Shown: piece after piece, positions 14,050 through 60,328 of the stretch
How the letters are laid out: each line of letters opens with the position of its first letter
Position numbering within the stretch: the stretch's first letter is position 1
Program-made: the position numbers and the translations under genes
The notes under the pieces: generated by a model
Told to the model about the DNA's origin: nothing
Databases searched by the model: none
Seen by the model: the letters and a program-made list of their open reading frames with translations, nothing else
NCBI GenBank assembly: GCA_964384025.1
Contig: CAYLJJ010000029.1
Span: 1 to 60,328 of the forward strand
Direction: 5' to 3'
DNA from: an uncultured Nannocystaceae bacterium
GTDB taxonomy: Bacteria > Myxococcota_A > Bradymonadia > UBA7976 > UBA1532
Length of the DNA stretch: 60,328 nt

Positions 14050-14070
14050 GACTCTCCAATCTCTTGATCT

Positions 14071-15201
14071 TTAAGCTTTGCTTGGGCGCGGTGGGATAGA
14101 GATCTGCTCGACGATCTCCAGACCATAGCCCTCCAAGCCTTTGATGCGCGCCTCGCTACAGCTTAACAAGCGGATCTTTTTGACCCCCTGATCCAGGAGA
14201 ATCTGCGCTCCAATTCCAAACTCTCTTAGGGTCGCGATCGGCTCAGGTCCCCCCCGAAGCTCCTGAGAGACACGCGGGGCGGGTTTCTGGAGGTAGACCA
14301 GGACCCCTTGACCCTCCGCCTCCATACAGCGGAGGGCATACTCCAGACGCCAACGTGAGTCATAGGGAGCACAGCGAAAGACATCGCCCAACAAGCTCTC
14401 TTGATGAACACGACCCAGGACAGGCTGTCTTGGATCAGGTGTCCCTTTGACGATGGCGAGGTGCTCCAGGGCGCCCACCTTACTGCGGTAGCTGAGAACC
14501 TTAAACTCGCCTATCTCCGCGACCTCCAAGCGCTGCTCGGCGATGCGCTTGACCAAGCGCTCCTTACAGAGGCGATAGCTGATGATGTCTGCCACCGAGA
14601 GCATCAAGAGGCCTCGCTCACGAGCAAAAACCTCCAGCTGAGGTCGACGAGACATGCTGCCATCCTCGTTCATGATCTCGCAGATCACCCCAGCGGGCTC
14701 TAGGCCCGCGAGGCGAGCCAGATCGACAGAGCCCTCTGTCTGCCCTGTGCGCACCAACACCCCTCCCGCCTTGGCGCGTAGGGGGAAGATATGCCCTGGG
14801 CGCGAGAGCTGCTCAGGGCGAGCTTGGGGAGCGACCGCCGTGCGGATGGTGTGAGCTCGGTCTGCTGCGCTGATCCCCGTAGTTACTCCTTCGGCGGCCT
14901 CTATGCTCACCGTAAAAGCGGTCCCAAACTTACTGTTGTTCTCGTTCACCATCAGCGGGAGGTTCAGCTGGTCACAGCGAGCAGGGGTCAGGGAGAGGCA
15001 GATCAGACCACGGCCCTCTCGGGCCATAAAGTTGATGCTCTGGGCGGTGACCTTCTCGGCGGCCATCACCAGATCACCTTCATTCTCTCGATCCTCATCA
15101 TCGACGAGGATCACCATCTCACCCTGGCGGATCAGCTGGATGGCTTGCTCGACACGCTCCAGGCTCTCAGACTCTCGATCATTCATCTCTTTATAACTCA
15201 A
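14071..15201 (-). CDS. ribB: 3,4-dihydroxy-2-butanone-4-phosphate synthase fused to a degenerate GTP cyclohydrolase II-like domain (RibBX-type)
   Basis: The N-terminal half is a DHBP synthase ([20 protein letters not shown]). The C-terminal half aligns to RibA but lacks the Zn-binding Cys motif (ECLTGD ... RCDCG is replaced by ESLLGD ... RCAPYDSRW) and the NNPKK region. Confidence 0.8.
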
Positions 15202-33466: not shown

Positions 33467-33941
33467 GGAACTCCTAAAAAACGCTCGTTTCGTTCTCGAT
33501 CATTTTGAATGAAAATAGCATACCATTGCAATGAACCACTCTGGAATAAAGTCCAGAGTATGCTTTAGCAACTGAAATTCGTTACAAACAAGTCGATCAT
33601 CAACCTACGGATAATGTTAATGTCATTTTTATCGCATATTCGGCGGAATAGTTCTCTTATTTTGAATCAAACATTATCTGTTGAAACTTTGTCTCTATAC
33701 TTTATTATCCACACAAGATAGACCCTTAAATCATATATTGAATGCGAAGACTTACGATATGATCTCATCATTATGATTATATAAAAGTTTTGCGCTAAAA
33801 TGCAGACTTTTTACCCATGGTACGGAGAATCAATCTGACTGATCCAGCGCCCTGTCGGCTCAGATTTTCGAACAGACCCAAAAGATCTGCTACACTCCAC
33901 CACCGCCAAATCAACATCCCCAGAGAATATCGAGGGAGCCC

Positions 33942-35564: not shown

Positions 35565-35594
35565 ATTTTCATTTCAATATTTATTAATACATCC

Positions 35595-35852
35595 TCATAA
35601 AAACATCCGGCTGTACTTCCAACGAGAGAACCATTGGTGAGCGACAATTTTATCCACCCAAGCGGGTCCTTCCGGGAGTTCCTCCCATGAACAACCTGTA
35701 ATTAGAATGTAAAGGATTGTGTTGGCAGCATGCTTCGCCTCAAGATCTGAATATTCGGAAGAGTTTTTCTTAGACCTTGAAAGAATTGTTCCAAAAATGC
35801 TCCACTCAAGATCGTCAAGGTCTACAAAATCCTTTTTCATACTCTCTCCCAT
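35595..35852 (-). pseudogene. IS5/IS4-superfamily transposase N-terminal fragment (remnant)
   Basis: 85-aa ORF in low-GC DNA. LDDLEWSIFGTIL ... NTILYILITGCSWEELPEGPAWVDKIVAHQWFSRW matches the conserved N-terminal module of IS5-family transposases (LTDEQW..I..LLP ... NAILYVLRTGCQWRDLP ... TVYRRFRRW). A stop follows immediately; no DDE domain is present. Confidence 0.5.
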
Positions 35853-35974
35853 CTAAAAATATAGTAAATTTTATCATTTTTCAGCATAAAAATCAATCAA
35901 TTGACGTGCAAATTGAGTTATAAGGAATGTTTTTTGCCGCGCCTATAGTGCCTGCCCAGAGAACCTATAAGAAG

Positions 35975-36502
35975 TTACATTTCATACTCTCCAAAATCTT
36001 TGGGGTCCATCTCTTCGAGCATCTTAGCCATACGCTGACGCCCCTCTTCATCATCTGCGGAGAAGATGGGGGGCTGCTTCTGGGCTCGTTCTGGGAGAGG
36101 CTGAGCTACGGCCAGCAGCTCAGAGGCGACCCAGAGAGGAGCCCCAGTCCTAAGAGCCAGGGCGACAGCGTCTGAGGGGCGACAGTCGATGCGGCTGATG
36201 GTCTCATCCTGGGCTTGCAGATAGAGATCTGCAAAATAGGTCCCTCCCTTAAGGCCCCTCAGCTCCACTTTGAGGACTTGGGCTTTAAGGGCGTTGATGA
36301 TCATCTTGAGGAGATCATGGGTCAGGGGACGAGGGCTGCGCTTACGCTCTAGAGCGAGGGCGATGGCGTTGGCTTCAGGGGCGCCGATCCAGATGGGCAG
36401 CAGCAGGCGCCCACCCTCATCTTGAAGGAGGAGGATAGCGCGCTTCTTCTGATCCAGGGCCAAACCCCGGATCATAAAACGGAGATAGCGTCTCTTAGTC
36501 AT
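35975..36502 (-). CDS. bifunctional nuclease family protein (DUF151/BFN domain)
   Basis: 175 aa. ILLLQDEGGRLLLPIWIGAPEANAIALALE ... RPLTHDLLKMIINALKAQVLKVEL ... DCRPSDAVALALRTGAPLWV, typical DUF151 motifs. Confidence 0.65.
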   Translation of the reverse strand: MTKRRYLRFMIRGLALDQKKRAILLLQDEGGRLLLPIWIGAPEANAIALALERKRSPRPLTHDLLKMIINALKAQVLKVELRGLKGGTYFADLYLQAQDETISRIDCRPSDAVALALRTGAPLWVASELLAVAQPLPERAQKQPPIFSADDEEGRQRMAKMLEEMDPKDFGEYEM

Positions 36503-42067: not shown

Positions 42068-44086
42068 TCAGCGATAGGAGGCGCGATCGCAACGTTCTAC
42101 CACCACCGCCGGACGATCAACATCAGGCCAGTCAAATCCATGCATATTGGGAACATAGAGGAGGCAGAGCGTATCTGTTCCCGCCTCAAGGGGGAGCCAC
42201 CACCAGAGGTTGAGGATATCGAATAGACCACAACCAAAGAGCTCCTCCAGGATCCCGATATCGGCGGGATCGACGCCCAGCGCCTCCAGATCCTGTTCAC
42301 AGACATACTCCTGATGATCGTCATCTGTTCCTTCGATCGTCTCAACCTCAACGCCTCCAGTCATCAGAACCTCATCTATCTCCAGGATGTTGCAAGCGAT
42401 GACGCTGCGCTCCTCAGAGAAGCGCCTCCAACACTCCGCCATAAGCCCCAGGAGTTGTACTTGAACATCCATATCAGCACCACCAATGAGCGTTCGGGCG
42501 GCGCAGAAGCCACCGGTGGTACAGCTGCTTCGATCAGCTTGACAGTGCATATCCTCTCGACACTCTACACAGCTCTCCTCTTCTGAGTGGCAGAAGAGAT
42601 CACCGCTACAATCGCAGTCTTCTCCACACGCGCCCCCTTGAGATTGATGGCAGCGCCGCTCTTGACCAGGACAGTTAGCGACGAGGCTACACTCCGCCCC
42701 TGTAGGACACTGTCGATCCTCTGCGCAAGGTTCTCCGCTCTGAATCCGACACTCCCCTGCCACCTCATCACAGTGGAGATGAGCGCTGACGGCACAGTCA
42801 TTATCTTCACGACAGGAGGTGCCAGGCCCACCTACACAGACCTGTCCATCACAGATCTGCCCTCGCCTAGGGCACTCATCGATGGTCTCGTTGCAGTTGT
42901 CATCCACGCCATTACAAACCTCGCGAGCATCGGGGTTGACCTCAGGATTCTGATCATCACAGTCAGGCCCCCCGTTGGGGCAGGCCCCACTCCCAAAACC
43001 ATCCCCATCCAGATCGACACACTCACCAGTGCCCTGATGGATACAGGGACGATCCCCCCCTACACAGTCATCATCGATGTTATTGCCGCAGATTTCATCG
43101 CGATTTTGATGGATGCGAGGATCGGAGTCATCGCAATCTTCAGCCAGGCAGCCACGCCCCTCTCCATGCCCATCCTGATCTCGGTCAACGCACTCCTGCG
43201 CGATGGCTCCATCTCGCCCACTGCAATCTTGATCGATCCCATCTCCAGGAATATCCCAAGCGGCGGGGTTGATATTGGGGTTCTGATCGTCACAATCCGC
43301 CCCGATACAGTCATCTCCTGTACCAAAGCCATCATGATCCCGATCTTGACAATGTTGGGGACAGGATAGGTCTTGGCCGTTACAGTCCTGATCGACACCA
43401 TCCCCGCAGATCTCACTGGCCCAGCGATTGATCTGAGCATTGCTGTCATCGCAATCATCGCCACGGCAGCCGGAGCCCACCCCAAAGCCATCCTGATCAG
43501 CGTCAGTACAGTTGGGCATACAGGGCACATCACCTCCCTGGCAGTCATCATCACGGAAATTGCCGCAGATCTCCTCAGCTCCTGGGTTCACCGAGGGGTT
43601 CTGATCATTACAGTCTCCACCTTGGGCGTTTCGATTGGCGTTACAGTTCTGAGCCTCCCAGCCATCCTGATCCAGATCATCACAGGCAACGCAGGCGGGG
43701 TCTCGGCTGGGGAGCTGGCCGTTGCAGTCATTGTCAATCTCATTGCCACAGTTTTCATCTCGACCGGGATGGATCGCTGGATCTCGATCCGCGCAATCTC
43801 CTCCTCGATGAGCAGGGTTGGGGTTACAGCTTCGTTCCTGCCAACCATCACCATCAGCGTCGATACAGCCCGTGCCACCGCCTCCCGCAACACCTCCGCC
43901 GCCAGCCATCCCAGCTCCACCTGCCTGACCTCCGCTGCCCACCTCAGGGCCGCTCGCTTGGCTATCCTCCTCGACTACCCCTCCTCCCCCGGCGCCATCC
44001 AAGGCGACATCTTCTTCATAAGCGACAGGCTCTATCTCCTCAGCGCAGGCAGAGAGCAAAAACAGCGCGGCGATCCAAATCCTCAT
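42068..44086 (-). CDS. secreted Cys-rich protein made of tandem MopE-type putative metal-binding repeats
   Basis: 672 aa. MRIWIAALFLLSACA lipobox/signal. At least 8 repeats of the form C..DxDxDG(F/W)...C...DCDDxxxxxxPGxxExCGNxxDDDCxG, followed by a Cys-rich C-terminal domain. Confidence 0.7.
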   Translation of the reverse strand: MRIWIAALFLLSACAEEIEPVAYEEDVALDGAGGGGVVEEDSQASGPEVGSGGQAGGAGMAGGGGVAGGGGTGCIDADGDGWQERSCNPNPAHRGGDCADRDPAIHPGRDENCGNEIDNDCNGQLPSRDPACVACDDLDQDGWEAQNCNANRNAQGGDCNDQNPSVNPGAEEICGNFRDDDCQGGDVPCMPNCTDADQDGFGVGSGCRGDDCDDSNAQINRWASEICGDGVDQDCNGQDLSCPQHCQDRDHDGFGTGDDCIGADCDDQNPNINPAAWDIPGDGIDQDCSGRDGAIAQECVDRDQDGHGEGRGCLAEDCDDSDPRIHQNRDEICGNNIDDDCVGGDRPCIHQGTGECVDLDGDGFGSGACPNGGPDCDDQNPEVNPDAREVCNGVDDNCNETIDECPRRGQICDGQVCVGGPGTSCREDNDCAVSAHLHCDEVAGECRIQSGEPCAEDRQCPTGAECSLVANCPGQERRCHQSQGGACGEDCDCSGDLFCHSEEESCVECREDMHCQADRSSCTTGGFCAARTLIGGADMDVQVQLLGLMAECWRRFSEERSVIACNILEIDEVLMTGGVEVETIEGTDDDHQEYVCEQDLEALGVDPADIGILEELFGCGLFDILNLWWWLPLEAGTDTLCLLYVPNMHGFDWPDVDRPAVVVERCDRASYR

Positions 44087-44213: not shown

Positions 44214-45920
44214 TCAGCGCTCCTCAGCAAACGGCAATATGTCAGGGGTGATGAAGCCCGGCGTACTGTAGGTTTGTCGGCGACCGTTCATGTCGAAGCT
44301 GGCCTCAAGAGTGTAGAGGCTGAAGCCAGCATCTGGCGCTTCAAGCGCGACAACGAAAGTGCCATCTGGCTCTGGTTCCAGTAAGCGGGCTGACCAAATC
44401 TCACCCACGAGAGCAAAGCGGAAGTCTCGAGCTTCGGGGTTAGTCGCGACCCACAGTTTGACCTCATCGGGTGGTGGAGCAGCGGAGAAGGTCAATACAT
44501 CACCATCACGGCTCCAACTCATCTGTGGGCGGGGCTGCCCTTCGACCACCGCGCGGAACCATGGAACGACCGTCGCGAGCACATCGCTGATCGCCTCATT
44601 AAGCGAGTGACCAGTGTTGGCAAACTGCCGGTAGACAGTCTCTCCGGGCAGCTCGTCGAGATATAGCGACGCCGCATCGGGTAGGAAGAATTCATCACCC
44701 GCTGCGGTGAGGATCAGCTTGGGCATGGTCAGTCGATCGAGATATGAGATGGGATCAACGATCGCCAAGAGCGCCTCGCTTTCGGGGCTGCCTAAGCGAG
44801 CGATGACGCCCTGCTCGACATAATCTGCGATCGCCTCAGAGTAGAATCCATAGGCTTCAAAATGGCGTTCAATCTGTAACCCCATATGCAATACATCAAA
44901 CACCCCAGGCGCGATGGCGCGCACTCGATCATCATAAATGCCGGTCAGCCACGTTGTCGCCCCGCGCTTTGAGAACCCAGTTACGATCACATCCTGGACT
45001 TCAACCCCCTCAAGCTCATCGTCAAACTCCTGCACTGCGTCAATGCTACGTACCACCGCTTTTGTCATCGGTAGGTAGGCTGGCCAAGTAGGATCACCTG
45101 TCTCCATCATCTTGTTCCAGGTCCAGGCGACGAGCGCATCTTCGCTGTAGGGCTCACCAACATCAGAGAAGATCAATGGTTGGCTGGGGATTTGGGATAT
45201 GTTGATGACCACCGCCTGCATCTGAGTGCTGAGCAAGAAGCCAAGCTGTATAGCGTCCTCGTCAAGCTGCGCATCGGGGCTGGGATGACTGCTGCCGCTG
45301 ATGATCACCAACGCGGTGTCAGTTGAGACTAACGGGGGCACGATAATTGAGACTTCATGGGTCCAGATGGTTCGATTCACCTCCTCCTCAGTACGCCATC
45401 GCTGACTATCAACCAGCAACAGATAGGCTTTATAGGTGGGGGTAAGCTCTTCATCGATGAGCTGCCAGCCAAAGGTTTCATCATCGGCGCGTATATAGTC
45501 GCCGAGCGGTCCCTCAAGCGGAGGGCGTGTCGGAGAAGGCTCAGCGTCGAGGATCTCTCCAGTGTCAAGGACCTGCCCTAAATCAAGGGTCTGCCCTGAG
45601 TCGAGGGCCTGCCCTGAGTCGAGGGTCTGCCCTGAGTCAAGGATCTGCCCTGAGTCGAGGATCTGCCCTGAGTCGAGGATCTGCCCTGAGTCGAAGGTCT
45701 GCCCTAGATCAGGGGTCTGTCCTAGATCAGGAATCTGCCCTAAATCAGGTTGCGATATGACTACATCAGGCTGCGGTGCTGTTGTGTCTGATGTTGAGCC
45801 ATCGCTGGATCCATCACAGGCGAGGAAGCCACCAGACAGTACAAAGATCGTCAAGAGTGTTCGGATAGAATTGAAGCTGTGCATGTCGGGTGCATAGCTT
45901 GGTTGATGGAGAGCGGTCAA
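44214..45920 (-). CDS. secreted lipoprotein with N-terminal 6-aa tandem repeats and a C-terminal hydrolase-like domain (possibly PqaA/PhoPQ-related family)
   Basis: 568 aa. The lipobox FLAC follows an N-terminal hydrophobic stretch. About 11 x (L/P)D(S/L)GQ(I/T) repeats. The C-terminal globular domain has GFSKRGATTW. The family name is uncertain. Confidence 0.45.
   Translation of the reverse strand: MTALHQPSYAPDMHSFNSIRTLLTIFVLSGGFLACDGSSDGSTSDTTAPQPDVVISQPDLGQIPDLGQTPDLGQTFDSGQILDSGQILDSGQILDSGQTLDSGQALDSGQTLDLGQVLDTGEILDAEPSPTRPPLEGPLGDYIRADDETFGWQLIDEELTPTYKAYLLLVDSQRWRTEEEVNRTIWTHEVSIIVPPLVSTDTALVIISGSSHPSPDAQLDEDAIQLGFLLSTQMQAVVINISQIPSQPLIFSDVGEPYSEDALVAWTWNKMMETGDPTWPAYLPMTKAVVRSIDAVQEFDDELEGVEVQDVIVTGFSKRGATTWLTGIYDDRVRAIAPGVFDVLHMGLQIERHFEAYGFYSEAIADYVEQGVIARLGSPESEALLAIVDPISYLDRLTMPKLILTAAGDEFFLPDAASLYLDELPGETVYRQFANTGHSLNEAISDVLATVVPWFRAVVEGQPRPQMSWSRDGDVLTFSAAPPPDEVKLWVATNPEARDFRFALVGEIWSARLLEPEPDGTFVVALEAPDAGFSLYTLEASFDMNGRRQTYSTPGFITPDILPFAEER
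45550..45762. repeat. about 11 tandem copies of an 18-bp unit (consensus ctgccctgagtcgaggat on the + strand), in-frame within the 44214..45920 CDS
   Basis: Direct reading of the sequence shows the tandem copies. They generate the mirror ORFs 45527..45760 and 45562..45897 on the opposite strand. Confidence 0.85.
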
Positions 45921-46040: not shown

Positions 46041-48206
46041 TCAGAAGAGGCTACACATCTGGACCGAGCAGGGATCACCTCGGCCATCTCCATCTTGATC
46101 CTCTTGGCCCGGGTTAAAGAGCCGAGGGCAGTTATCACAAAGATCACCCAGGCCATCCCCATCTTGATCAAGTTGGGCTGGATCGGGGTGGAAGGGGCAG
46201 AGATCACAGAGATCACCCAGGCCATCTTTATCCAAATCCTGCTGATCTGGGTTGGGCTCAGAGGGACAGCTATCGCAGAGATCACCATAACCATCCCCAT
46301 CCAGATCCTGCTGCTCTGGGTTGGCCACCTCAGGGCAGTTGTCGCTGCCCTGGCAGACCCCATCCTGATCTACAAACTCATCTCCACAGACACCACCCAA
46401 AGAGCGCTCTAAAACAAGGACCCCGTAGGCAACCGCACTGCTCTGTCGCCAATAGCCCCGACGACCATCAGAAGGCCAACTGCCCTCTACATGTTGATTC
46501 TCGGTGAGCTGCCAAGCGAAGTCGTAGTACCAGCCCCGGGGCTCCTCTGGATAGCCATCCAAGACCGGATCTCTTAGACCCCCGATCTCCTCAGCGCTGA
46601 TCCCCTCAGCCTCCTTGGTGACCTCCAGCGCTTTGGCTGCCGCCCAGAGGTGGTAGTAGTAGGACTGCCGCCAGCCACCCACATGATCATCAAAGTGATA
46701 GTTGTCCCTCAGCCAACGCATTCCTGCTTGAACGCGCTGGTCATCAGTTTCTAGACCCGCGAGGCGATAGGACCAGATCCCCGCTGCGGTCATCGCGCTG
46801 GTAGAGGGGGTCTCTAAGCAACCACGATATTTCATACCCCCATCCTCATTTTGAACGTTCTGGAGGAAATTAACCGCCATCGCGAGACTATCGACAGCCT
46901 CTGGAATCTGGCTGGAGGCGGCGCTCAATCCAGCCATGGCGAACTGAGTGGTTGAGAGATCTCCATCTTGCTGAGGGCTGCGATAGTTCCATCCTCCAAA
47001 GTTGCACCACTCACTGTTGCCCGATTGGTGCGCCTTGAGGCTTGATGTCCCCCGAGAGATCGCTTGACTGACCGGGAAGCCAGCCTGGACATCATCTGGC
47101 CCCCCTGTTTCTAGGTAACGAGAGAGGAACATCAAGGCGCTCCCAGTCCCATAGGCGTAGGGCGCACCGCTGCCTTTAAGGGCGGGATCCAGACCCATCA
47201 GATAGGCAGCCATCCTTCTTAAACGCGCCTGATCCTCCTCCTCAGCCCCCTCATAGCCACGCACGGGCGCCTGCCAATGAGCGCTGGCGCGACGCTCAAG
47301 GAGGGCGAGACCCGCCAAACCTGTAGACCAACCATCAACCGCGCCCTCATGCTCTTGAGCGCGGAGCCAATTCAGACCCCGCTCAATCCCCTCATCAACA
47401 CGAAGTCCAAAAGGGGTCAAGGGTCCCTCAGCGATGCCTGCCATGTTCAGCTCTGGCTGCTCCTGAACATGTATGGGGAAGGAGAGCCCCGTACAGAAAT
47501 CAGGGTGTCCCTCTTCGCAGGCGGAGAGCTGAAGTCCATAATCTCCAGGGGTTCGAGTCATGAACTCAAAGCGAAGCCCCTCAGCGAGGCTGTCAAAATC
47601 AGCCTCCTCTGGAGTCTCTAGGATCTCCCAATGAAGCTCGATGGGATCCCCTTCGTTGTCCTGAACAGAGGCCAGGAGGCTTAGAGCCTCGCAGACCAAG
47701 ATGAACTTAGAGGGTTCAAAGCTCAGGGACTCAATAAAGGGAGGGGAGTTGATCGCCGCCATCACGTCCAAGCCGCCTCTGGAGGGCGCTTGACAGCGCG
47801 CCATCAGGAGCAGCTCGGTGGTCTCTCCCTCGCGGATATCTACCCTCTCCTCTCCAGGCTCACATTGAGGCGCGGGCAGTCCAGGGCTCTCCATTGGAAT
47901 CACCCGTACCAAGTAGATCCCAGCCTCCAAGACCGTGTAGGCGTCAGCGAAACGTCGCCCCTCAGGACCCAGATGCCCTGGCAGCCCCTCCTCCTCAAGA
48001 GGAAGATAGCGACTACTGAGCAAGATCCCATCCTCGCGCTCCACCTCAAAGAGAAATCCCGCCAGTTCCAGATCTCCAGCACTCAACTGGAGACTTAAAC
48101 TGCCCATCATCGGGAGCGGAGCCCCCTCCAAATTATCGTGATTTTCATTGCAGGCGGGGAGGAGAAAGAGGCTAAAGATCAAGAGCTGTAAGATGTTCCG
48201 GAGCAT
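46041..48206 (-). CDS. lipoprotein with prenyltransferase/terpene-cyclase-like alpha/alpha-toroid repeats and C-terminal thrombospondin type-3 (TSP3) Ca-binding repeats
   Basis: 721 aa. [19 protein letters not shown] lipobox. Several Q..DG.W repeats ([33 protein letters not shown]). The C-terminus carries 4-5 DxDxDGxGDxCDxCP..xNP.Q.D motifs typical of TSP3 repeats. Confidence 0.55.
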
Positions 48207-50867: not shown

Positions 50868-51613
50868 TGCTCCTTAGGGCGCTCTCCTTGACTCTCTGCT
50901 TGGCCTGTCATGCTGAGGAGCCTGTCCCTCCAAAGTTGGATCCAAACCCTTCACAATCTCGGGGGCTTCAGATCGCCGGTCAGGCTGAGGCCAGCCCTCT
51001 GATGCGACGGCTGTTGGGGGTCTTTCAGGCGCAGCAACCGGGAGCGCTTATCCGACTCTTAGCCCCCATCTCTCCCCGAGGAGCACAGCAGGCTTTAAGG
51101 GATGGTCGCCTAGATGGTGTACTCCTGATGGACAGCAGCAAGGGCCTCCTCTTTGCTCAGAGCCGCGCCCTCCTGATGGTTGGTCCCGGCGTGGGAACCT
51201 CCGAACTCTCCTTGAAGGATCTCCTGGGGCTCTTTAATGGAGAGCAGAGCTTCTGGCCTGGGGGGCTGCCTCGAAGCCTTCTTTGGAGAGCTGAAAGGGC
51301 CGCTGCTCAGGCCGCATTGAGGAGACAATATGAGCTTCCAGGACCCAGAGAGGGGCGAGGTTTGCAGGGAGACGCAGAGTTAAGAGAGAACCTGCGCATC
51401 AGCCCTGGCTTGGTGGGAGCCACAGATTCAGGAAGCTTGGCGCTCCACGGTGCCCCTCTCTGGAGGCTGAGGCTACCAAAGCCCGCCCCAAAGCTGGAGA
51501 TCAGGCTGCTCCTCTCTGATGATCCCCCCGCGCGACTCAAGGCTCTGACCCGCTTCCTCAAGAGCCGAGAGGCTCAGGCTCAGATTGAAGAGCTGGGTTA
51601 CGAGCTGCCGTGA
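50866..51613 (+). CDS. periplasmic solute-binding-protein-like accessory protein of the two-component system
   Basis: Signal peptide MLLRALSLTLCLACHA. The PBP-like fold is inferred only from general composition. Translationally coupled to both neighbours. The ORF-track TTG start at 50828 is probably upstream read-through. Confidence 0.4.
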
Positions 51614-52833
51614 AGGAGCTGCTCGCTCCCTTTACCCGCAAGATGGCTCCCTTGGCCCTCACTGCGGCGTTGCTCACAGGAGTCCTGCTGCCCGCTTCTT
51701 GGCAACACCTCGCGCTCCAGGAGAAGCGCGCAGAGGCGCAGAGCTGGGCGCGGCAGCTGGCGGCGCGCTTAGAGCAGCGCGCCGCTGAGCGTCCAGGACT
51801 TTGGGCTTATGACAGCGAATATCTGGAGGCCCTCAGCCGCATCCTCTCCCGCGCCCCCACTTCAGCGCATCTGCGCCTTGATCTCCCTAGACGAGAGGGG
51901 GTCTTTCAGAGCGGCCCCCCCCCTCAATATCCTATCTCCGCCTGGGCGCTCATTCAGGGAGAGGGGCGACGCTTGGGGCGACTGCGGGTGCAACTCTCGG
52001 GAGAGCGCCTCTACTGGATGGGCCTCAAGCTTTGGTTGATAGCCTCTTTGATGGGGCTTCTTTTGGGCTTGGCCCTTTTGGCCCTGCCGCTGATCACCCT
52101 GGGTCGTGTAGAGCGTCGCCGCCGAGGGCTCTGGGATGCTCTCCAAGATGCCAACAGCAGTCTAGAGGCGCGGGTGGAGGAGCGCACCGCTGAGCTGCAG
52201 CGACGTGAGCAGGAGCTGAGCCGCCTGGGAGCTAGACTCCTGGCGGTACAGGAGGAGGAGCGGGCGCGCATCAGCCGCGATCTTCATGATGAGTTGGGTC
52301 AGCTTCTCACCGGACTGCGTCTTCGGTTGACAGCGATGGAGCCGATGGTCGAACGAGCTGGGCGGCAACACCTTCAGAGCGCTCTGGAGGCGGTGGATCT
52401 CGGGGTAGAGCAGATCCGTAACTTGGCTCATGCTCTACGGCCTCCTGAGCTGGACGCTCTGGGTCTAAGCAGCGCTTTAAAGGCCCACGCTGAGAGTTGG
52501 GCAGAGATGGCTCAAATCTCCCTTAAACTTGAGCTTCAAGACCCTCCTTCAGAGCTGGCTGAGCTGTTTTTTCGCATCGCCCAAGAAGCCCTCACCAATG
52601 TAGCGCGCCATGCTCAGGCTGAGCATGTACGCCTTGAGTTGGCTCCCATTGATGACGGCTGGCGGCTGATCGTAGAAGATGATGGCTGTGGGCTCTCTAA
52701 AGAGTCACAGCGCCAAGGTCTAGGGCTCCTGGGGGCTCGAGAGCGCGCTGAACAAGCTGGAGGCTATCTTGACCTGGAGCAGAGCAGCCTGGGAGGGCTC
52801 AAGCTCCTCGCTTGGCTGGAGGTGATCGATTGA
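51610..52833 (+). CDS. sensor histidine kinase (HisKA_3 / NarX-DegS type)
   Basis: 407 aa. Two TM segments. An H-box DLHDELGQLLTGLRL (HisKA_3) and a HATPase_c region (ALTNVARHAQA ... DDGCGL ... GLGLLGARERAE). Confidence 0.85.
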   Translation: MKELLAPFTRKMAPLALTAALLTGVLLPASWQHLALQEKRAEAQSWARQLAARLEQRAAERPGLWAYDSEYLEALSRILSRAPTSAHLRLDLPRREGVFQSGPPPQYPISAWALIQGEGRRLGRLRVQLSGERLYWMGLKLWLIASLMGLLLGLALLALPLITLGRVERRRRGLWDALQDANSSLEARVEERTAELQRREQELSRLGARLLAVQEEERARISRDLHDELGQLLTGLRLRLTAMEPMVERAGRQHLQSALEAVDLGVEQIRNLAHALRPPELDALGLSSALKAHAESWAEMAQISLKLELQDPPSELAELFFRIAQEALTNVARHAQAEHVRLELAPIDDGWRLIVEDDGCGLSKESQRQGLGLLGARERAEQAGGYLDLEQSSLGGLKLLAWLEVID

Positions 52834-53444
52834 AGATCCGTGTCTTTGTCGTTGAGGACCACACCATCGTTCGACAGGGCCTCATCGCCTTGCTGGAGTC
52901 CTGTGAAGATCTCCTGCTCGTCGGGGAGGAGGGGGATGGGCGCCGCGCCTTGGCGGCTATCCCGGAAGCTCAGCCCGACGTTGTGCTCTGTGATCTGGCT
53001 CTGCCGGGGCTCTCTGGCTTGGAGATCCTACAGCGCCTCCAGGAGCTGGAGAGTCCCCCCAAGGTTCTGATCCTTTCTATGTATCATGATCCCGTCTGGG
53101 TACAGCGCGCGGTGGAGGCGGGAGCCAAAGGTTATCTGCTCAAGGGGGCTGGAGTACAGGATGTGACCAAGGCGATCCGCGCGGTCGCGGCAGGAGAGAC
53201 CTTCCTCTCACCTGGGGCTCAGCGCTCCATCCATGCCAGCCCGCTCTCTCCTCGGGAGCGTGAGATCCTGACCCTTCTGGCCAGCGGTCACACCAGCAAG
53301 GAGATGGGGGGCATCCTGGGTATCAGCCCTCGAACAGCGGAGCATCATCGTGCTCGCTTGATGAGCAAACTCAATATCAATGATGTCGCTGGGCTGACCC
53401 GTTACGCGATCCGTAACGGCTTTGTAGATCAGAACCTCCGTTAG
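52830..53444 (+). CDS. NarL/LuxR-family response regulator
   Basis: REC domain ([16 protein letters not shown] ... [11 protein letters not shown]) with a LuxR HTH ([43 protein letters not shown]). The TTG at 52830 is preceded by GGAGGTGA; the ORF-track ATG is at 52812. Confidence 0.85.
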   Translation: [204 protein letters not shown]

Positions 53445-54151
53445 AGCCCCAACTTATGAACAATGATCCCTTCTGAGGCGCGCACACTCTTGAGGCACCA
53501 ACGCGCCAGCAATAGGCGTTGCCGCGCTTGAGGCAGATCTCCCTGAGATCCCTCCTCTGCCCGCATCGCTCGAACTCGAGGGACCAGATGAGAGAGGCTC
53601 ATCCCCACCGAGACAGAGACGTTGAAGCTCTCGGTGAAACCATACATCGGGATACGAAAGCTCTCATCACAGCCCGCCAAGGTCTCTGGCAACAGCCCTG
53701 TCTTCTCACTGCCAAAGAGCAGCAGGAGGGGCTCATCGATCGGGATCTGGCTTAACTCAAAGCGGGCGCGTGGCCCTGCACCAAAGACCCGCATCCCTCG
53801 TGCTCTCGCCCAGCTCATCATCGCTTCAGGGCTGGACAGGCGGTGGAGGTCTAACCAAGCGTGGGCCGCCATGCTGACTTGGCTGGAGACTCCAGGGAGC
53901 GGGAAGGCATGGCGGGCCTCTACGCTGACTACATCCTGGAGTCCCATCCCTTCCGCGCTGCGCAGGCAGGCTGCACCATTGTGGCTGTGGTAGAGATCTT
54001 CTAAACCCAACGCCAAGCTCTCCAAACGCAATGAGAGGACCTCCTGCATCCGTCTCAGGCGCTCCTCAAGCATATGGGGGGAGAGGGCCTCAATGATCGC
54101 CTCAACGGGGAGCTGATGGCCCTTAATTTCTAGGGTGTTGGGGATATTCAT
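53441..54151 (-). CDS. SpoU/TrmH-family RNA 2'-O-methyltransferase
   Basis: 236 aa. C-terminal FRIPMYGFTESFNVSVSVGMSL (SPOUT knot motif IPM.G..ESLNVS.A). Confidence 0.7.
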   Translation of the reverse strand: MNIPNTLEIKGHQLPVEAIIEALSPHMLEERLRRMQEVLSLRLESLALGLEDLYHSHNGAACLRSAEGMGLQDVVSVEARHAFPLPGVSSQVSMAAHAWLDLHRLSSPEAMMSWARARGMRVFGAGPRARFELSQIPIDEPLLLLFGSEKTGLLPETLAGCDESFRIPMYGFTESFNVSVSVGMSLSHLVPRVRAMRAEEGSQGDLPQARQRLLLARWCLKSVRASEGIIVHKLGL

Positions 54152-54388
54152 CCCGCAGGTTTAGCAGGAGCGGAGCGCTCTTTTCTAGGGGTTACGGTTT
54201 ATAGCACCGTCCTCTGAACGAAGAGAGTTTTGGCTGACGCCCAAATATCAATTCCTCCTCTTCGCTCATCGATTGCAGCCGTGTTGGAGGCTCATAGATA
54301 CCACCTCATGGCGTGGGAAAATCTGATGTAGCAGCCTCGATCTTAGGATTGGCGGAACCGGAACGAGTGGGAATCTCGGAGCGCCCGC

Positions 54389-54458
54389 AAGTGTGCATTT
54401 AAAGTGTGCACGAGTGTGCGTGCACATGTGCACTGCACACTAAATGCACATGTGACAT
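54389..54458. promoter_or_regulatory. cluster of overlapping GTGCAC / TGTGCA palindromes at the high-GC/low-GC junction
   Basis: aagtgtgcatttaaagtgtgcacgagtgtgcgtgcacatgtgcactgcacactaaatgcacatgtgacatgg contains three GTGCAC hexamers and three AGTGTGC direct repeats within about 70 bp. Confidence 0.4.
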
Positions 54459-54673
54459 GGATGTCTCACCTTGGAAAAATGGGGATTTTGAGGGTGAGGA
54501 GGGTGATGGGTACGGGGTCAAAGAATGGTGTAAATATTGCTACTGCAATTGAAGTGTTGTTTTGAACTGAAAAAAAACATTTTTGTCTCGATTTTTGATG
54601 TTTTTTTCTGGTTTATTTACTTGGGTAAACTTCTCTGAATTTCAGACACAAAAAATATAAAGGATAAAATTTC

Positions 54674-55573
54674 TTGAGACGTAGAATTAGTATACTAACA
54701 GCAATTTTACTGTTGATGAGTTGTAAAACTCAGTCAGAAATTTGCGGTGAAAATGCAAGATTTAACAATCCAGAGTGTTTTCCCGATGGTGGACCATCAG
54801 GAGGAGGCCTTAAGTATATAAATTTACCTGTGATTGGATCTGACAATGAGTTAGAAATTAAAATGAAATGTGGTGGATATCAAACAAGAGTACTGTTTGT
54901 ACCTGCCGATGGAGAGCCTGAATATGGATTTGTAATTCAAAAGGTTGCTTTCAATATAACTGGATCAGTACCGGAGTATTTTGACCTAAATATTCTGGGA
55001 GTTTTTGATGATGGAAACGATTTTTGCGCTGAAATGGTTAATCATAATATTGTATTCTGGGAAATGTTCCCAGTACACAATAGATATTTAGAACCTATAG
55101 ATATTAATTCGGCTAAACAAGTTCACAGTGATGAACAACTTTTTTCTGTTACGACATACGCAAAATTCTTCACATCCGAAGATGTACGCGAATTTTACGA
55201 TGTTAATGAGTTTACACCATTTGATGATCTTATCAAGGTTATGGGATTTTGTGAAAAACATGTACCAGATCCACATGCTAGCGATTGGAGAAGAAAAATA
55301 ATTCCTGATAACCAAAGATTTTGTCCCTCATTTGCAATAATTGATAGAGAAATTGAATTTTTTGATCCTTATTTAAGCGATGAAAATTTAGGATATATGA
55401 TTGCAAAAGAACTTCCAGTATCAATTGAAGAGCCTACTATATGGACTTCGAGTTCAAATAGTGCATTAGTACGTGAATGGAGTATTAAAACAATAAATTG
55501 TTGTGATTCGACTGATGAGGATATTGATTCGACAATATTACTAAAGGTCCCTCGTTTGGTGGGCAATGATTGA
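54674..55573 (+). CDS. hypothetical lipoprotein (low-GC island gene 1)
   Basis: 299 aa. MRRRISILTAILLLMSC lipobox. AT-rich codon usage distinct from the rest of the window. Confidence 0.5.
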   Translation: MRRRISILTAILLLMSCKTQSEICGENARFNNPECFPDGGPSGGGLKYINLPVIGSDNELEIKMKCGGYQTRVLFVPADGEPEYGFVIQKVAFNITGSVPEYFDLNILGVFDDGNDFCAEMVNHNIVFWEMFPVHNRYLEPIDINSAKQVHSDEQLFSVTTYAKFFTSEDVREFYDVNEFTPFDDLIKVMGFCEKHVPDPHASDWRRKIIPDNQRFCPSFAIIDREIEFFDPYLSDENLGYMIAKELPVSIEEPTIWTSSSNSALVREWSIKTINCCDSTDEDIDSTILLKVPRLVGND

Positions 55574-56213
55574 TTCAATCATGAATATGAAGAAACCAAT
55601 ATTGATATTGTTAATTACAATGCAAGTATATGGTTGTAATGTTTCGTCAGTTTACTATTTAAGTGATAATCAGGTCAAAATAATAAGATATTTGCACAGT
55701 TTGCCAAGTTGGGAGGCCGTTTTCGAATATCCTGTTGAATTCCATAAGTTTTTTATGGCTGCATATTTATTAAAATCTGTGAATGATGATGAACGAAGAG
55801 AAATTCTCGCAAATTTTGTTCGAATTGCACCTGATTATCCACCTAATAGATTTTTTGAAAGAAGATTTTATATTCTTTTAAGGGTTATGTTTGAATTACC
55901 AAACAGAATTTCGCAAAATGAAGCAAGACCTTTCCATAATTGGATATATACCGGCAATATTAGAAATAAAAAATGGTTTTCAATAACCTGGCCGGTGATT
56001 ATTGGCGCGAATAAGTCTAAATTAATAATAAAACACCCTACTTTCAGAGAAAGTTATGATGGAATGATGGAATATGACTTTATGGTTGATAGATATAAGT
56101 TTAGGTCGCGCAAAGAATTGCGTATACATCAATATTCAATACTTAAACAAATCAAGTATCCAGAGGGGCAAATGCAGTTTTTTAGAAAACAAAAAGGAGG
56201 AGAAAAAAGATGA
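55566..56213 (+). CDS. hypothetical secreted/lipoprotein (low-GC island gene 2)
   Basis: 215 aa. MNMKKPILILLITMQVYGC lipobox-like. Overlaps both neighbours, indicating an operon. Confidence 0.45.
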   Translation: MIDSIMNMKKPILILLITMQVYGCNVSSVYYLSDNQVKIIRYLHSLPSWEAVFEYPVEFHKFFMAAYLLKSVNDDERREILANFVRIAPDYPPNRFFERRFYILLRVMFELPNRISQNEARPFHNWIYTGNIRNKKWFSITWPVIIGANKSKLIIKHPTFRESYDGMMEYDFMVDRYKFRSRKELRIHQYSILKQIKYPEGQMQFFRKQKGGEKR

Positions 56214-58429
56214 CAGATTTTAAGATGTACGGGTTATCAATTATTATGGTCTTGTTTGGGTGTAGTCCAAGTATAGACTCACTATTACGATTGGATTCTG
56301 GAACTAAGGATGATTGTATTGATAGTGATGGTGATGGATTTTGCGAAGAAATAGATTGCAATGATTCAGATTATTCTATAAATCCCGATGTAATTGAAAG
56401 CTGTAATGGCGTAGATGACAACTGCAACACCCATATTGACGAAGAGACTATATCTGGAAGTGAATGTCTCTTAAAAAGAAATGGGTGTGAGTTTAGCGGA
56501 ATACATTACTGTAATTTTAATGGTAGTATTATTTGTGATGCTGAAGCCAGCATTCCAGATGAAATTTGCGATGGTATAGATAATGATTGCGATGGTGAAA
56601 TAGACGAAGGTAATCCAGGTGGTGGAGAAGAGTGCGATACAGGAGATCCTGGAATTTGTAATATAGGTGAATGGACTTGTGTAACAAATGCAGAATCTAC
56701 AGGTTTTGGATGTATTCCAAATATCACGCCTGGAACACAAGCAGAGATTTGTGATGGTGTAGATAATGATTGTGATGGTAGTATCGATGAAGATGCTGAC
56801 GGAAACCCAATCGCCACATCATGCTATACAGGCCCTGAAGGAACAAGTGGAGAAGGGCTTTGTTCAGATGGCATATGGACATGTTCAGAAGGACGTTTTG
56901 GTCCATGTATAGGACAGATACGACCTACAGATGAAATCTGCAATGGAAATGATGATGATTGCGATGGAATAGCAGATGAAGGTATGCCTGAAGAATGTGC
57001 CTGTGATCCAAATGCTAACCCTGATCCTGTATATTGTTATACTGGCCCAGCAGAAACAGATGGTGTAGGTTTATGTAATGGCGGTGACGCCATGTGCAAT
57101 GATACTACAAATCTATGGGAAGAATGTGCAGGTGAAATTCTCCCTACAGATGAGCTTTGCGACACTTTTGACAATGATTGCGATGGTATAGCAGATGAAG
57201 GGCTTGGTTTAGGAGATTCCTGTACTGTTGGCATAGGTCAATGTCAAAATACAGGCGTTGTTGAATGTGCCGCAGATCATGGCGTTAGATGTAATGCCAT
57301 AGAGCACGCTTCATCAGATGAGGTTTGCGATGGGATAGACAATGATTGCGATGGTATTATTGACGACATTCCTACGATTAATACAGATTGTAGCATGGGA
57401 ACAGGTACATGCGAAACAACTGGCATATATGTCTGCAATCTTGAAAACAATACCATAGTATGCAATGCACCTCCACCGAATTCATCAGAAGAAGTCTGTG
57501 ATGAAATAGATAATGACTGTGACGGTGATATTGACGAAGGCTTCAATGTCGGAGAAAGCTGTACAGTAGGTATCGGAGCTTGTGAACGTACTGGAATATT
57601 CGCTTGTTCGTTTGACACCACAGTCGTATGTAATATCCAACCTGGCGGACCTGGAGCAGAGATTTGTGATGGAATAGATAATGATTGTGATGGTGAAGTA
57701 GATGAAGGCTTTGGCGTTGGAAATCTATGTGTAGGAATAGGTGAGTGTTCTGATGGTCAACTTGAATGTAATCTGGTTGGAGAGGCCATCTGTAATACAA
57801 ATCCTGGTGGCAGTGCTTATGTAGAAGAGGATGACGTTTGTGATGGGCTAGATAACAACTGCAACGGAAATATAGATGAATACTACTATAGCCTTGGTCA
57901 AAGTTGTAATGAAAGTTGCAATGAAGGCGCATATGAGTGTCATCCAACAAACCAAAACAACACTATATGTAGTACTAGCCCATCTGGAAGTGAAGTCTTA
58001 CAAGAGATTTGCGACGGAATAGATAATGATTGCGACTGGCAAATCGATGAACAGGAAGATTTAGTAGCACCTCTTGCAGATGATCAGCTTGGCGTATGTT
58101 CTGGCAGTCATAAAGATTGCTCTGGGTTATCTGGCTGGACAGAACCAAACTATATAGCCTTTGTTGATATGTATGAAACAGTCGAGGTTTCATGTGATGG
58201 CCAAGATAATGACTGTGACGGCACTGTTGATGAAGACACCGACTTTCCTGAAATTCTAGCAGACAATCAAAATGGTGTTTGCGCTGGGATTGAGAAAGTC
58301 TGCTCTGGGGGAGGGTGGCAGGAACCAGATTATGCAGGCACTATCGGTGCTACATATGAGGCCACTGAGATACTCTGTGATACCCTAGATAACGATTGTG
58401 ACGGCGCTGTAGACGAAGGATGCCCTTGA
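56210..58429 (+). CDS. lipoprotein made of tandem MopE-type Cys-rich putative metal-binding repeats (low-GC island gene 3)
   Basis: 739 aa. MTDFKMYGLSIIMVLFGCSPS lipobox. More than 12 repeats ending in ...E(I/V)CDG(I/V)DNDCDGxIDE. Confidence 0.65.
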   Translation: MTDFKMYGLSIIMVLFGCSPSIDSLLRLDSGTKDDCIDSDGDGFCEEIDCNDSDYSINPDVIESCNGVDDNCNTHIDEETISGSECLLKRNGCEFSGIHYCNFNGSIICDAEASIPDEICDGIDNDCDGEIDEGNPGGGEECDTGDPGICNIGEWTCVTNAESTGFGCIPNITPGTQAEICDGVDNDCDGSIDEDADGNPIATSCYTGPEGTSGEGLCSDGIWTCSEGRFGPCIGQIRPTDEICNGNDDDCDGIADEGMPEECACDPNANPDPVYCYTGPAETDGVGLCNGGDAMCNDTTNLWEECAGEILPTDELCDTFDNDCDGIADEGLGLGDSCTVGIGQCQNTGVVECAADHGVRCNAIEHASSDEVCDGIDNDCDGIIDDIPTINTDCSMGTGTCETTGIYVCNLENNTIVCNAPPPNSSEEVCDEIDNDCDGDIDEGFNVGESCTVGIGACERTGIFACSFDTTVVCNIQPGGPGAEICDGIDNDCDGEVDEGFGVGNLCVGIGECSDGQLECNLVGEAICNTNPGGSAYVEEDDVCDGLDNNCNGNIDEYYYSLGQSCNESCNEGAYECHPTNQNNTICSTSPSGSEVLQEICDGIDNDCDWQIDEQEDLVAPLADDQLGVCSGSHKDCSGLSGWTEPNYIAFVDMYETVEVSCDGQDNDCDGTVDEDTDFPEILADNQNGVCAGIEKVCSGGGWQEPDYAGTIGATYEATEILCDTLDNDCDGAVDEGCP

Positions 58430-58760
58430 GCCTTTTTCGTTCCTTCCTGCCACTACTGCTTGTTCTCTTCCTATGCGCTTCAGCGTCTTCTCATGAACAC
58501 CCAAGTGAAGTTCAAAAAGGGGGGATCATTTCGAGCTATAACAATCCTCTATGGATTTGCTGGAGATGCTATAGGTATAGATTTCACTGAACATGAAACA
58601 TCACAGAAGGATATTCGTCGTATATTTGGATTCAATCCATGTATAGAATGGAAAGCTGGAGACAATATATATTTTGGTGCAAATTTAATATTGTTATGGT
58701 TAGACGATCCATTTTCTTATTTTGATACACGACGGTCATTGACTGAAATAGATTTATGAT

Positions 58761-58782
58761 AGAGAATTTTATTCTCTATTTG
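58761..58782 (+). terminator. hairpin AGAGAAT-TTT-ATTCTCT followed by a TATTT stretch, downstream of the island operon
   Basis: Perfect 7-bp inverted repeat with a 3-nt loop, seen directly. The T-tract after it is weak. Confidence 0.25.
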
Positions 58783-58814
58783 GAAAGAATTATGTGTATA
58801 CTTCCCTATCTTAG

Positions 58815-58936
58815 CTGAGTCCGCCGGATTTTGTGGTTAATTCATTCTAAGGGGTTACGTCCACTCATGGCTGCGGCAACAAGCAAATTCTGTAGCCAAT
58901 TCTCGTGGTATGAGAAGCCATTGATATCTTGAAAGG
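58815..58936 (+). repeat. copy 1 of a 122-bp direct repeat (CTGAGTCCGCCGGATTTTGTGGTT ... GATATCTTGAAAGG)
   Basis: Matches 60207..60328 with a single mismatch (a/g at 58840 vs 60232). Confidence 0.85.
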
Positions 58937-59614
58937 GCGAGACTCTTGAAGGATGTCGACGGCGATTACGAGGGGAGTAGGGATGGAAATTCCATATTGA
59001 GGGCCTGCGCGCGAACCATCAGGCGGGTTGATTTGATGGTTCCGTGGAAAGTATTTGTGTGCAAGTAAACGCATTCCACGTGCCTGCTGGTGAAAACAGA
59101 CGTGTGATGCTCTTTAGCTACTACTCTGAAGATACAAACATGCGTTAGGAGGCGCAATATGTACTGTTCAGTCATTCAAACTTATTGCAATTGCTTAAGG
59201 CTCGCATGCTTCATCCTAATAGGAGTTTCGTGTGTCGAAAACACTAATGATTTAGACATAAAAGGAATGTCAAAGGATGTAAGCCTTATTCATGAGCAAA
59301 AAACACCCGATTTTGGCTTACAAAATGGCGATATAAAGCATTTAGAACTTGATATTGCCTTATTAAGTCAGGAAAAATGATAGTTTTCTGGAAGAGCATT
59401 CTCAATGCGAGAACTTAGATGAGCAGGACTGCCTCACCCTTTTCACGTGTGACCCAATATATGGTGATCATCTTAATGATATTGGAGAACTTAGTTCTGG
59501 TTATATTGGCTGTCTAACATCAATAACACCTGAAGGAGATGGTATAAGCTGCAATACTGTTGCTTCTTGCACAGTAGCTACTGAAGGTTCTATTTGCTTT
59601 CGAATTCCACATGA

Positions 59615-60133
59615 TTGTCCACCAGATGGATGGAGCATCGTACATTGCGGGAGTACTCCGGGTTGTATCGAGTAAATTTTATACCTTATAAATATCTGCT
59701 CAGCCTGACTTACTGGATTGGCGGAACTCTTGCCCTTGCAATAATCGGATTACTTATTTTAATATGGTTTAGTTTTTCCCAAGAAAAAGAGGCCCCATGC
59801 GTTATTATTGCAACAATAAATGATGTAAAAATCTTCCAAAGCGAAGTTGATTTTATGCAGGCGCAGTTAATTTTGCAAGGAGGATCAGAGGACCAATATA
59901 GTGCGATGCTTGAGGTCCTTTGGCAGGAAAATGAGCGACAACGTCGCAAATTAATACCTGCTCCGACACGAGCTGATGCCCGACGGATTGCAGTAAGACG
60001 ACTTCGCCATGAACGTCTAAGTAATCATACGAATCCACAACTGAAACTTGGGAATATACCACAAAATACTCAGTTTACGGATTGTGGACTGAATATTATT
60101 AGCAAGGAAGCATATAATCGTGTTTTTCAGTAG
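59615..60133 (+). CDS. hypothetical protein (172 aa) inside the repeat-bounded segment
   Basis: AT-rich ORF with one TM-like segment (LALAIIGLLILIWF). No family recognised. Confidence 0.3.
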   Translation: MSTRWMEHRTLREYSGLYRVNFIPYKYLLSLTYWIGGTLALAIIGLLILIWFSFSQEKEAPCVIIATINDVKIFQSEVDFMQAQLILQGGSEDQYSAMLEVLWQENERQRRKLIPAPTRADARRIAVRRLRHERLSNHTNPQLKLGNIPQNTQFTDCGLNIISKEAYNRVFQ

Positions 60134-60206
60134 AATTTTAAATCCTTAATCCCTGAGTGAATATCTTAATATTTTCACAAAGAATCCTGAGTTCATCTCA
60201 TTATTC

Positions 60207-60328
60207 CTGAGTCCGCCGGATTTTGTGGTTGATTCATTCTAAGGGGTTACGTCCACTCATGGCTGCGGCAACAAGCAAATTCTGTAGCCAATTCTCGTGG
60301 TATGAGAAGCCATTGATATCTTGAAAGG
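60207..60328 (+). repeat. copy 2 of the 122-bp direct repeat; it runs to the window edge and may extend further
   Basis: See copy 1. This copy is preceded by three spaced (T/C)CCTGAGT motifs at about 60152, 60185 and 60206. Confidence 0.85.

Follow-up and report, generated by a model that had tools for sequence, protein, structure and literature searches.

An AT-rich islet with a modular MopE-motif lipoprotein cassette in an uncultured Nannocystaceae bacterium

Gene content and base composition of the islet

The stretch of DNA analysed here (the window) comprises 60,328 nucleotides (nt) from an uncultured Nannocystaceae bacterium (assembly GCA_964384025.1, contig CAYLJJ010000029.1). Its last 6 kb form an AT-rich islet, in which three overlapping genes for putative lipoproteins (P1, P2 and P3) are followed by the remains of a fourth gene. 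By exact-protein look-up, a 70-kb contig of the Joint Genome Institute (JGI), L001, was found to cover the same region and to run 8 kb past the window end (window position = L001 position + 46209). The islet and its main genes are listed below; lengths of proteins are in amino acids (aa), and an arrow marks the predicted lipoprotein cleavage site.

54460..60328, continuing to window-equivalent 60441 (L001 14232), no strand: AT-rich islet (GC content 0.39; from the GC profile)
54674..55573, plus strand: P1, putative lipoprotein of 299 aa, signal MRRRISILTAILLLMS↓C, TTG start (open reading frame; third-position GC 0.21)
55566..56213, plus strand: P2, putative lipoprotein of 215 aa, borderline lipobox QVYG↓C (open reading frame; orphan)
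56210..58429, plus strand: P3, putative lipoprotein of 739 aa (VLFG↓C), conserved core gene of a cassette family (PF11617, E 3e-47)
58420..58814, plus strand: gene 4, pseudogene (from alignment to positions 5426-5850 of contig L004 and from translations)

The GC content in 1-kb windows falls from 0.60 at 53-54 kb to 0.32-0.44 across 54-60 kb, and at 200-nt resolution the drop is located at about 54,400-54,550. As whole segments, positions 1-54,150 have a GC content of 0.563 and positions 54,480-60,328 one of 0.387, and all low-GC stretches elsewhere in the window are 700 nt or shorter. The third-position GC content (GC3) of 42 native open reading frames (ORFs) is 0.634 ± 0.044, with a minimum of 0.538. 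The islet ORFs have GC3 values of 0.21-0.34 (P1 0.21, P2 0.26, P3 0.26; small ORFs 0.24-0.34), which correspond to z = -6.6 to -9.6 against the native set. A first-pass annotation, made from the sequence alone, had claimed that the coding sequences themselves switch to AT-rich codons, and the GC3 values agree with this. The shift is large, but its stated position (54,180) has to be moved about 300 nt to the right, and the background GC content is about 56% rather than 60%.

P1 and P2 overlap by 8 nt, and P2 and P3 by 4 nt. The proposal of a three-lipoprotein operon therefore holds as far as the co-oriented, overlapping ORFs of 299, 215 and 739 aa are concerned, but the operon originally had four genes and the lipobox of P2 is borderline. 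Bacterial lipoprotein signals follow a PROSITE-type lipobox rule, [LVI][ASTVI][GAS]C. When the sequences are read against this rule, P1 (LLLMS↓C) and P3 (VLFG↓C) fit, and P2 (QVYG↓C) is off at one position. P1 shares 31% identity with a remote relative, P0123, over the signal peptide and the N-terminal ~90 aa, and the TTG start of P1 is supported because this match takes in the signal peptide. No Pfam, NCBIfam, PHROG or PADLOC family was found for P1, P2 or a 172-aa ORF further downstream. An AlphaFold model of P1 built without an alignment was unusable, with a predicted local distance difference test (pLDDT) score of 33.

P3 is a chain of about 12 units, each 56-61 aa long, rich in Cys and Asp and with the motif CDGxDNDCDGxxDE, which appear as 12 repeat copies in the DNA. 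The acidic DxDxDG-like motif of these units presumably resembles Ca2+-binding repeats. PF11617 is the sole family matched by P3, with 158.9 bits against a gathering cut-off of 27 and in 10 stretches (E 3e-47), which confirms the earlier assignment of the last gene as a MopE-repeat gene. That gene had also been called a paralogue by architecture of the native, GC-rich gene at 42068..44086. Both proteins match PF11617 (E 7e-41 and 6 stretches for the native one), but they are not close, since the best BLASTP segment has 48% identity over just 58 aa (E 3e-8), or about 1-2 repeats. The AlphaFold model of P3 has a mean pLDDT of 70, with the central repeats mostly at 79-90, and found no fold match in the PDB (best E 0.26). 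The PDB includes MopE*; the P3 sequence matched no PDB chain at E <= 0.01. The PF11617 model spans a small part of MopE and lacks specificity beyond a putative metal site (PMC6189053), and the family name 'Cu-binding_MopE' therefore cannot be read as a function. The description of the module as metal-binding has this family name alone behind it and is not supported.

The named relatives of P3 belong to Myxococcales, Polyangium, Bradymonadia, Deltaproteobacteria and Eisenbacteria. None of them is from Bdellovibrionota, and protein searches with P1 and P2 gave no donor, so the Bdellovibrionota-like donor suggested before is not supported.

A family of AT-rich cassettes with a conserved core

The four closest relatives of P3 (P0004, P0005, P0006 and P0015) are encoded on short contigs with 36-40% GC overall, and three of the four come from the same metagenomes as the window. 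Their BLASTP identities to P3 are 59, 61 and 55% for the first three and 50% for P0015. The cassettes on contigs L004 and L005 are the same (99.8% nucleotide identity), which leaves four cassette versions: those of the window, L004/L005, L006 and L092. The contig ends of L004 and L006 are clearly high in GC, and over the final 200 nt of L092 the GC content rises only to 0.53. Two or more of the sister cassettes thus likewise form AT-rich islets within GC-rich sequence.

At the nucleotide level, the window and L004 are homologous only over 56553-58032 and 58083-58823, which take in most of the MopE-motif gene and the gene that follows it. Before the MopE-motif gene, the window has genes for proteins of 299 and 215 aa, L004 has genes for 633 and 344 aa, L006 for 279 and 149 aa, and L092 has one for 322 aa, and the upstream proteins of different cassettes have no detectable mutual similarity. 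Those of L004 matched nothing in Pfam, NCBIfam, PHROGs or PADLOC, those of L006 and L092 nothing in Pfam or PHROGs, and NCBI genomes contain no record of any sister-cassette protein. The window has no match to the flanks of L004 and L006, indicating that the sister cassettes lie at other loci or in other genomes. For the same reason, allelic replacement at one locus was rejected.

When the four MopE-motif genes were aligned jointly, their pairwise amino acid identities were 0.51-0.69. The synonymous divergence (dS) between cassettes ranges from 1.06 to saturation, and the ratio of nonsynonymous to synonymous divergence (dN/dS) is 0.15-0.22 in the five pairs with estimable dS. In all four cassettes the MopE-motif gene has a GC3 of 0.22-0.26. 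The saturated dS, the constant low GC3 and the low dN/dS together indicate that these genes diverged under purifying selection in an AT-rich setting.

Gene 4 is intact in L004, where it encodes a 208-aa protein with a signal peptide and the C-terminal end GIMRY, whose last residue is aromatic, and its ATG overlaps the stop codon of the MopE-motif gene. In the window, the ATG of gene 4 overlaps the end of P3 by 10 nt, and the reading frame is broken near 58515, where an A5G6 run has gained 1 nt (+1 frameshift), and again by two adjacent nonsense codons at 58757-58762. Its last third is lost at 58815-58823, where a direct repeat (R) starts. The window copy and the L004 copy have 75% amino acid identity over 77 aa. 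From the sequence, we infer that gene 4 may encode an 8-stranded outer-membrane barrel. The L004 protein had no Pfam, NCBIfam, PHROG, PADLOC or PDB match, and the window fragment had none in Pfam. Neither gene 4 nor P1 was found in the viral collection IMG/VR. Scans of metagenome collections with gene 4 and R gave no match and carry little weight, as the source contig itself was not returned.

Two further lesions were observed in sister cassettes. In L005, a 3-nt indel at about 5300 (compare L004 at about 5270) places a stop codon in frame, 58 codons short of the end of the MopE-motif gene. In L006, seven codons of gene 4 are followed at 4217-4520 by an N-terminally truncated, high-GC transposase ORF of the IS91 family (Y2_Tnp), and this IS91 fragment was found only beside that sister cassette. 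A 109-aa ORF at the right border of L004 was considered as a recombinase remnant and rejected, as it matched no family.

The best homologue of P3 outside the cassettes, P0023, is 38% identical over 778 aa and is encoded on a contig with 70% GC (L177; GC3 0.87). Positions 5001-11497 of this contig encode a TSP_3 protein, a 229-aa protein, the 920-aa MopE-motif lipoprotein P0023 and a 226-aa protein. The upstream gene overlaps the lipoprotein gene by 4 nt, and the small-protein gene follows. Between the 226-aa protein and the product of gene 4 there is weak similarity (26% over 111 co-linear aa, E 3e-6). Since the gene order is the same and a gene-4-like protein is present, the core of MopE-motif lipoprotein and gene 4 also exists in GC-rich form. 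A mirror image of the window was observed on contig L094, where a MopE-motif gene with 56% GC (GC3 0.59) at 685-3936 lies inside flanks of about 0.36-0.44 GC; MopE-motif genes can thus occupy DNA of different composition in both directions.

More distant MopE-motif proteins did not point to a source. In L010, a low-GC metagenome-assembled genome (MAG) of Myxococcales (43% GC), the MopE-motif genes are no nearer to P3 than others. In IMG/VR, 106 viral-classified stretches encode MopE-motif proteins, with a median GC of 0.43, and 80 loci were kept (L097-L176, GC 0.34-0.51). These proteins are 26-46% identical to P3, and some come from the window's own samples (3300009008 and 3300007510). The viral label is doubtful because the neighbourhood in L116 contains GroEL and a MoxR-type ATPase. 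A viral origin of P3 is disfavoured, since the best viral high-scoring segment pairs do not exceed 132 bits and cellular ones reach 412 bits. No blastn match to phage DNA was found in 50,697 phage records, no PHROG was assigned to P1, P2, the 172-aa ORF or the sister-cassette proteins, and the single plasmid match was a short MopE-motif stretch in Chondrinema.

The borders and the repeated right end

The features at the two borders and behind gene 4 are:

53441..54151, minus strand: SpoU/TrmH-type methylase, native left flank, with its start facing the islet (PF00588, E 2.5e-26; GC 0.59, GC3 0.68)
54387..54459, no strand: nest of short TGTGCA/GTGCAC/TGCACA palindromes at the GC transition (inverted repeats I1-I7)
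58815..59050, plus strand: R1, first copy of repeat R, 236 nt, GC about 0.48, non-coding (direct-repeat comparison)
59159..59675, plus strand: gene split over two frames for a small Cys-rich protein, secreted or lipoprotein-like (three-frame translations)
59615..60133, plus strand: 172-aa orphan ORF, 167 aa from the ATG at 59630 (ORF; gene call in L001)
60207..60328, plus strand: R2, second copy of R, cut by the window end; complete in L001 at 13998-14232, equal to window 60207-60441 (direct-repeat comparison)

The right border of the low-GC block is located at L001 14232, 113 nt beyond the window end. Past it, native high-GC genes lie on the minus strand and encode a 301-aa protein, a protein with sigma-70 region 4, TsaE and a NUDIX protein. 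The end of R2 coincides exactly with the change from low to high GC and lies 50 nt from the stop codon of the convergent 301-aa gene. R1 starts at the point where the homology of gene 4 stops, and a few bases (CTG-GTCCG) are shared there. R1 and R2 have 97.5% identity (6 differences) and lie 1392 nt apart. The pair brackets only the last 1.4 kb of the islet, and neither a third copy at the left border nor any further copy was found. The claim that the island ends in long direct repeats is thus right for the 236-nt pair at its right end, but the pair does not flank the island.

In its plus strand, R is predicted to form 4-5 hairpins with -88.8 kcal/mol for 236 nt. The folding z-score of a 251-nt stretch around R is -3.4 for the plus strand versus -0.9 for the minus strand. 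The differences between R1 and R2 fall in loops or keep G-U pairing in the predicted fold, an observation of little weight with two copies. No Rfam match was found at the gathering score, and none with E <= 5 within R. The window and L001 differ at three positions over 14.1 kb, all inside R1; possible causes are an ambiguous assembly and gene conversion between R1 and R2. Candidate identities for R itself are an unrecognised RNA, an att-like remnant and the trace left by a Campbell-type insertion.

Between the two copies, a 73-aa ORF (59159-59380) stops at an A-run and a second frame runs on to 59675, and this Cys-rich gene is probably a frameshifted pseudogene, as judged from its translations. 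The 73-aa ORF matched nothing in Pfam. The 172-aa ORF behind it contains one hydrophobic segment, which by eye would span the membrane.

At the left border, the palindrome nest lies about 215-285 nt upstream of P1. Three of the five GTGCAC sites of the window fall within 28 nt (54406-54433), in agreement with the GTGCAC-rich palindromic block described there before. The nest may serve as an operator or promoter. At 54452-54480, a match resembling a promoter was not above chance, and the nest is not present, by eye, upstream in L006, the single sister cassette inspected there. Directly left of the SpoU gene, a HisKA_3 histidine kinase and a NarL/LuxR-type response regulator are encoded (51610-53444), and a link between this two-component pair and the palindrome nest is conceivable. 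A target-site duplication or inverted repeat joining the islet borders was sought and rejected, as none was found.

The best relatives of the SpoU protein are in Myxococcota, Myxococcales and Bradymonadia MAGs at 61, 56 and 52% identity, and the named relatives of P3 suggest a similar host. Genomes at this distance are too divergent for a synteny comparison; the two-component genes near SpoU are retained in one of the nearest relative genomes, and there was no other usable synteny. In the nearest relative (L007, a Myxococcota MAG with 65% GC), the GC content dips to 0.41-0.46 near the SpoU locus, at about 2000-3000 and about 13000.

Origin of the islet

With moderate confidence, we interpret the region as an AT-rich islet of about 6 kb in a marine Myxococcota chromosome of about 56% GC, placed between the SpoU/TrmH methylase gene and the convergent 301-aa gene. 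It carries one partly decayed copy of a modular envelope cassette, most likely derived from an unsampled AT-rich gene pool. Candidates for this pool, in which the module would have diversified, are a mobile element of the lineage and a low-GC relative. The core of the cassette is the MopE-motif lipoprotein of about 12 units, translationally coupled to gene 4 and placed behind two cassette-specific orphan lipoprotein genes. In the window copy P1-P2-P3 alone are intact, gene 4 and probably the Cys-rich gene are pseudogenes, no mobility gene remains, and the right end has been rearranged around the 236-nt direct repeat. P1-P3 are predicted to reach the outer membrane through the Sec and Lol export pathways. 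There, P3 may form a disulfide-rich, probably Ca2+-stabilised stalk that presents or anchors variable partners at the cell surface, and a role of the cassette in adhesion, or in prey or kin contact, would fit such a location. Horizontal acquisition, as proposed in the first pass, is made plausible by the base composition and by a GC3 that was kept through saturated dS, but no donor was found. Because GC3 stayed low through saturated dS, unlike the 0.63 of the host, repeated acquisition from an AT-rich pool is favoured.

Several results weigh against this interpretation. No recombinase, integrase or transposase is encoded in the islet or in the 8 kb to its right on L001; the integrase anticipated beyond the window end was looked for and not found, and the island stops 113 nt on. 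ARAGORN detected no tRNA or tmRNA in the window or L001, and the two borders of the islet have no common repeat of at least 9 nt. No island-free allele was seen by exact look-up of the SpoU protein: every contig with the identical protein carries the islet, and such an allele is not visible because all these assemblies represent a single clonal population. P1 and P2 found nothing but themselves among 5.8 billion proteins in a word-index search. For P1, a full HMMER search of 1.84 billion representatives added one weak match, P0123 (E 2e-4), on a contig with 74% GC. The close relatives of P3 are all on short AT-rich contigs and none is in a long low-GC genome contig, and the sister cassettes may belong to other host lineages. 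The functional readings of P1-P3 and gene 4 have no database or structure match behind them.

Three other explanations were considered. The cassettes could be a long-resident, lineage-specific family that was kept AT-rich in place by selection for AT-rich DNA (for regulation or silencing), gene conversion among cassettes or local mutational bias, and was not imported recently. The diverged cassettes on short AT-rich contigs, two of which end clearly GC-rich, would be expected from such a family, as would the failure to find an external donor among 5.8 billion proteins. Also in its favour, the module of MopE-motif lipoprotein and gene 4 occurs in a contig with 70% GC, the sole remote relative of P1 comes from DNA with 74% GC, and the native intergenic regions are also AT-rich. 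We regard this explanation as unlikely, because a GC3 that stays at 0.24 over a dS of at least 1, amid a GC3 of 0.63, is explained by no known mechanism, because the unrelated upstream genes fit assembly from a gene pool better than duplication in situ, and because pseudogenes in several copies argue against strong selection at the locus. For the right end, a remnant of an integrative element was considered, in which the R copies are att-like or a circle carrying R and a 1.16-kb segment was inserted in the Campbell manner. In that case the integration target might have been an unrecognised gene for a structured RNA, with R as its 3' part. The near-identity and spacing of the copies fit this idea, as do their positions (R1 at the break of gene-4 homology, R2 at the GC border), the significant structure of the plus strand but not of the minus strand, and the confinement to R1 of the three inter-assembly differences over 14 kb. 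However, there is no recombinase in the islet or 8 kb rightward, R does not surround the whole islet and has no third copy at the left border, Rfam and ARAGORN were negative, and no further copy of R is available for covariation. We therefore hold this mechanism to be quite improbable; it concerns the mechanism only and is compatible with import from an AT-rich pool.

An assembly or binning chimera, in which a low-GC block was joined to a high-GC contig, has to be weighed as well, since three assemblies break in R (the window and L002 at the same position of R2, and L003 in R1). Both junctions, however, are present and 99.98-100% identical to the window in separate JGI, European Nucleotide Archive and Logan assemblies made from different samples, and L001 crosses both R copies into native genes. 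The recurrence of the same junctions in independent assemblies indicates that the islet is not an assembly artefact, and the chimera is effectively refuted, with a probability that we consider negligible.

The preferred interpretation, acquisition of a cassette from an AT-rich gene pool, places the region among ordinary genomic islets; its cassette belongs to a small family, and it is not a new system. Like flexible genomic islands with surface genes, it has a sharp break in GC and codon usage and an envelope cargo without homologues, and its cassettes occur in alternative versions in the same environment, with copies decaying. Unlike such islands, it lacks an integrase, a tRNA target and flanking repeats, and its versions are not replacements at the same locus. 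The PF11617 repeat proteins of Myxococcota and Bradymonadia, represented by P0023 on L177, share with P3 the CDGxDNDCDGxxDE units and a small downstream envelope protein, and in both P0023 and P3 a Cys follows soon after a hydrophobic N-terminal segment (by eye). P0023 differs in being only 38% identical to P3, in its GC3 of 0.87 against 0.26 in P3, and in its upstream partners. With MopE/CorA of methanotrophs, P3 shares the short PF11617 motif only, and no copper role can be assigned to it. The R pair resembles integrated elements bounded by long att-like direct repeats in that its copies are near-identical and one of them lies at a composition border, but there is no recombinase, the pair encloses just 1.16 kb of decayed small genes, and 236 nt is unusually long for an att site.

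What goes beyond an ordinary islet is the persistence of low GC3 through saturated divergence and the structured repeat. A bolder idea is that marine Myxococcota harbour self-perpetuating AT-rich envelope cassettes, in which a conserved MopE-motif lipoprotein and a small outer-membrane partner are kept, the orphan genes upstream are exchanged, and a GC3 of about 0.24 is maintained in GC-rich chromosomes. We consider this speculative and give it a low probability. If true, it would imply an undiscovered low-GC vehicle (a virus, a plasmid or a lineage-specific gene-transfer route) or an AT-preserving mechanism, and the structured 236-nt repeat would be a recombination site or a new RNA. If import of a modular cassette is the right interpretation, the islet would be a clean example of cell-surface variation in uncultured marine Myxococcota, in which interchangeable orphan lipoproteins join a Cys-rich stalk lipoprotein that is conserved, all carried on AT-rich DNA. 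The combination of saturated dS and constant low GC3 offers a handle for tracing the AT-rich source, and cassettes on short separate contigs may drop out of composition-based bins.

Two kinds of feature were also observed elsewhere in the window. Short AT-rich patches lie at 1-750, 7701-8300, 11151-11750, 33351-34000 and 35451-36100; they have a minimum GC of 0.32-0.36 in 300-nt windows and are apparently mostly located between large ORFs. Internal repeats occur in two native, GC-rich genes for secreted proteins. A PhoPQ-related gene (44214-45920, minus strand) contains an 18-nt tandem repeat at 45521-45754 with about 13 units, detected as 9 overlapping 90-nt copies in register, and a TSP_3 repeat protein gene (46041-48206, minus strand) contains three copies of a 69-nt repeat at 46126-46332.

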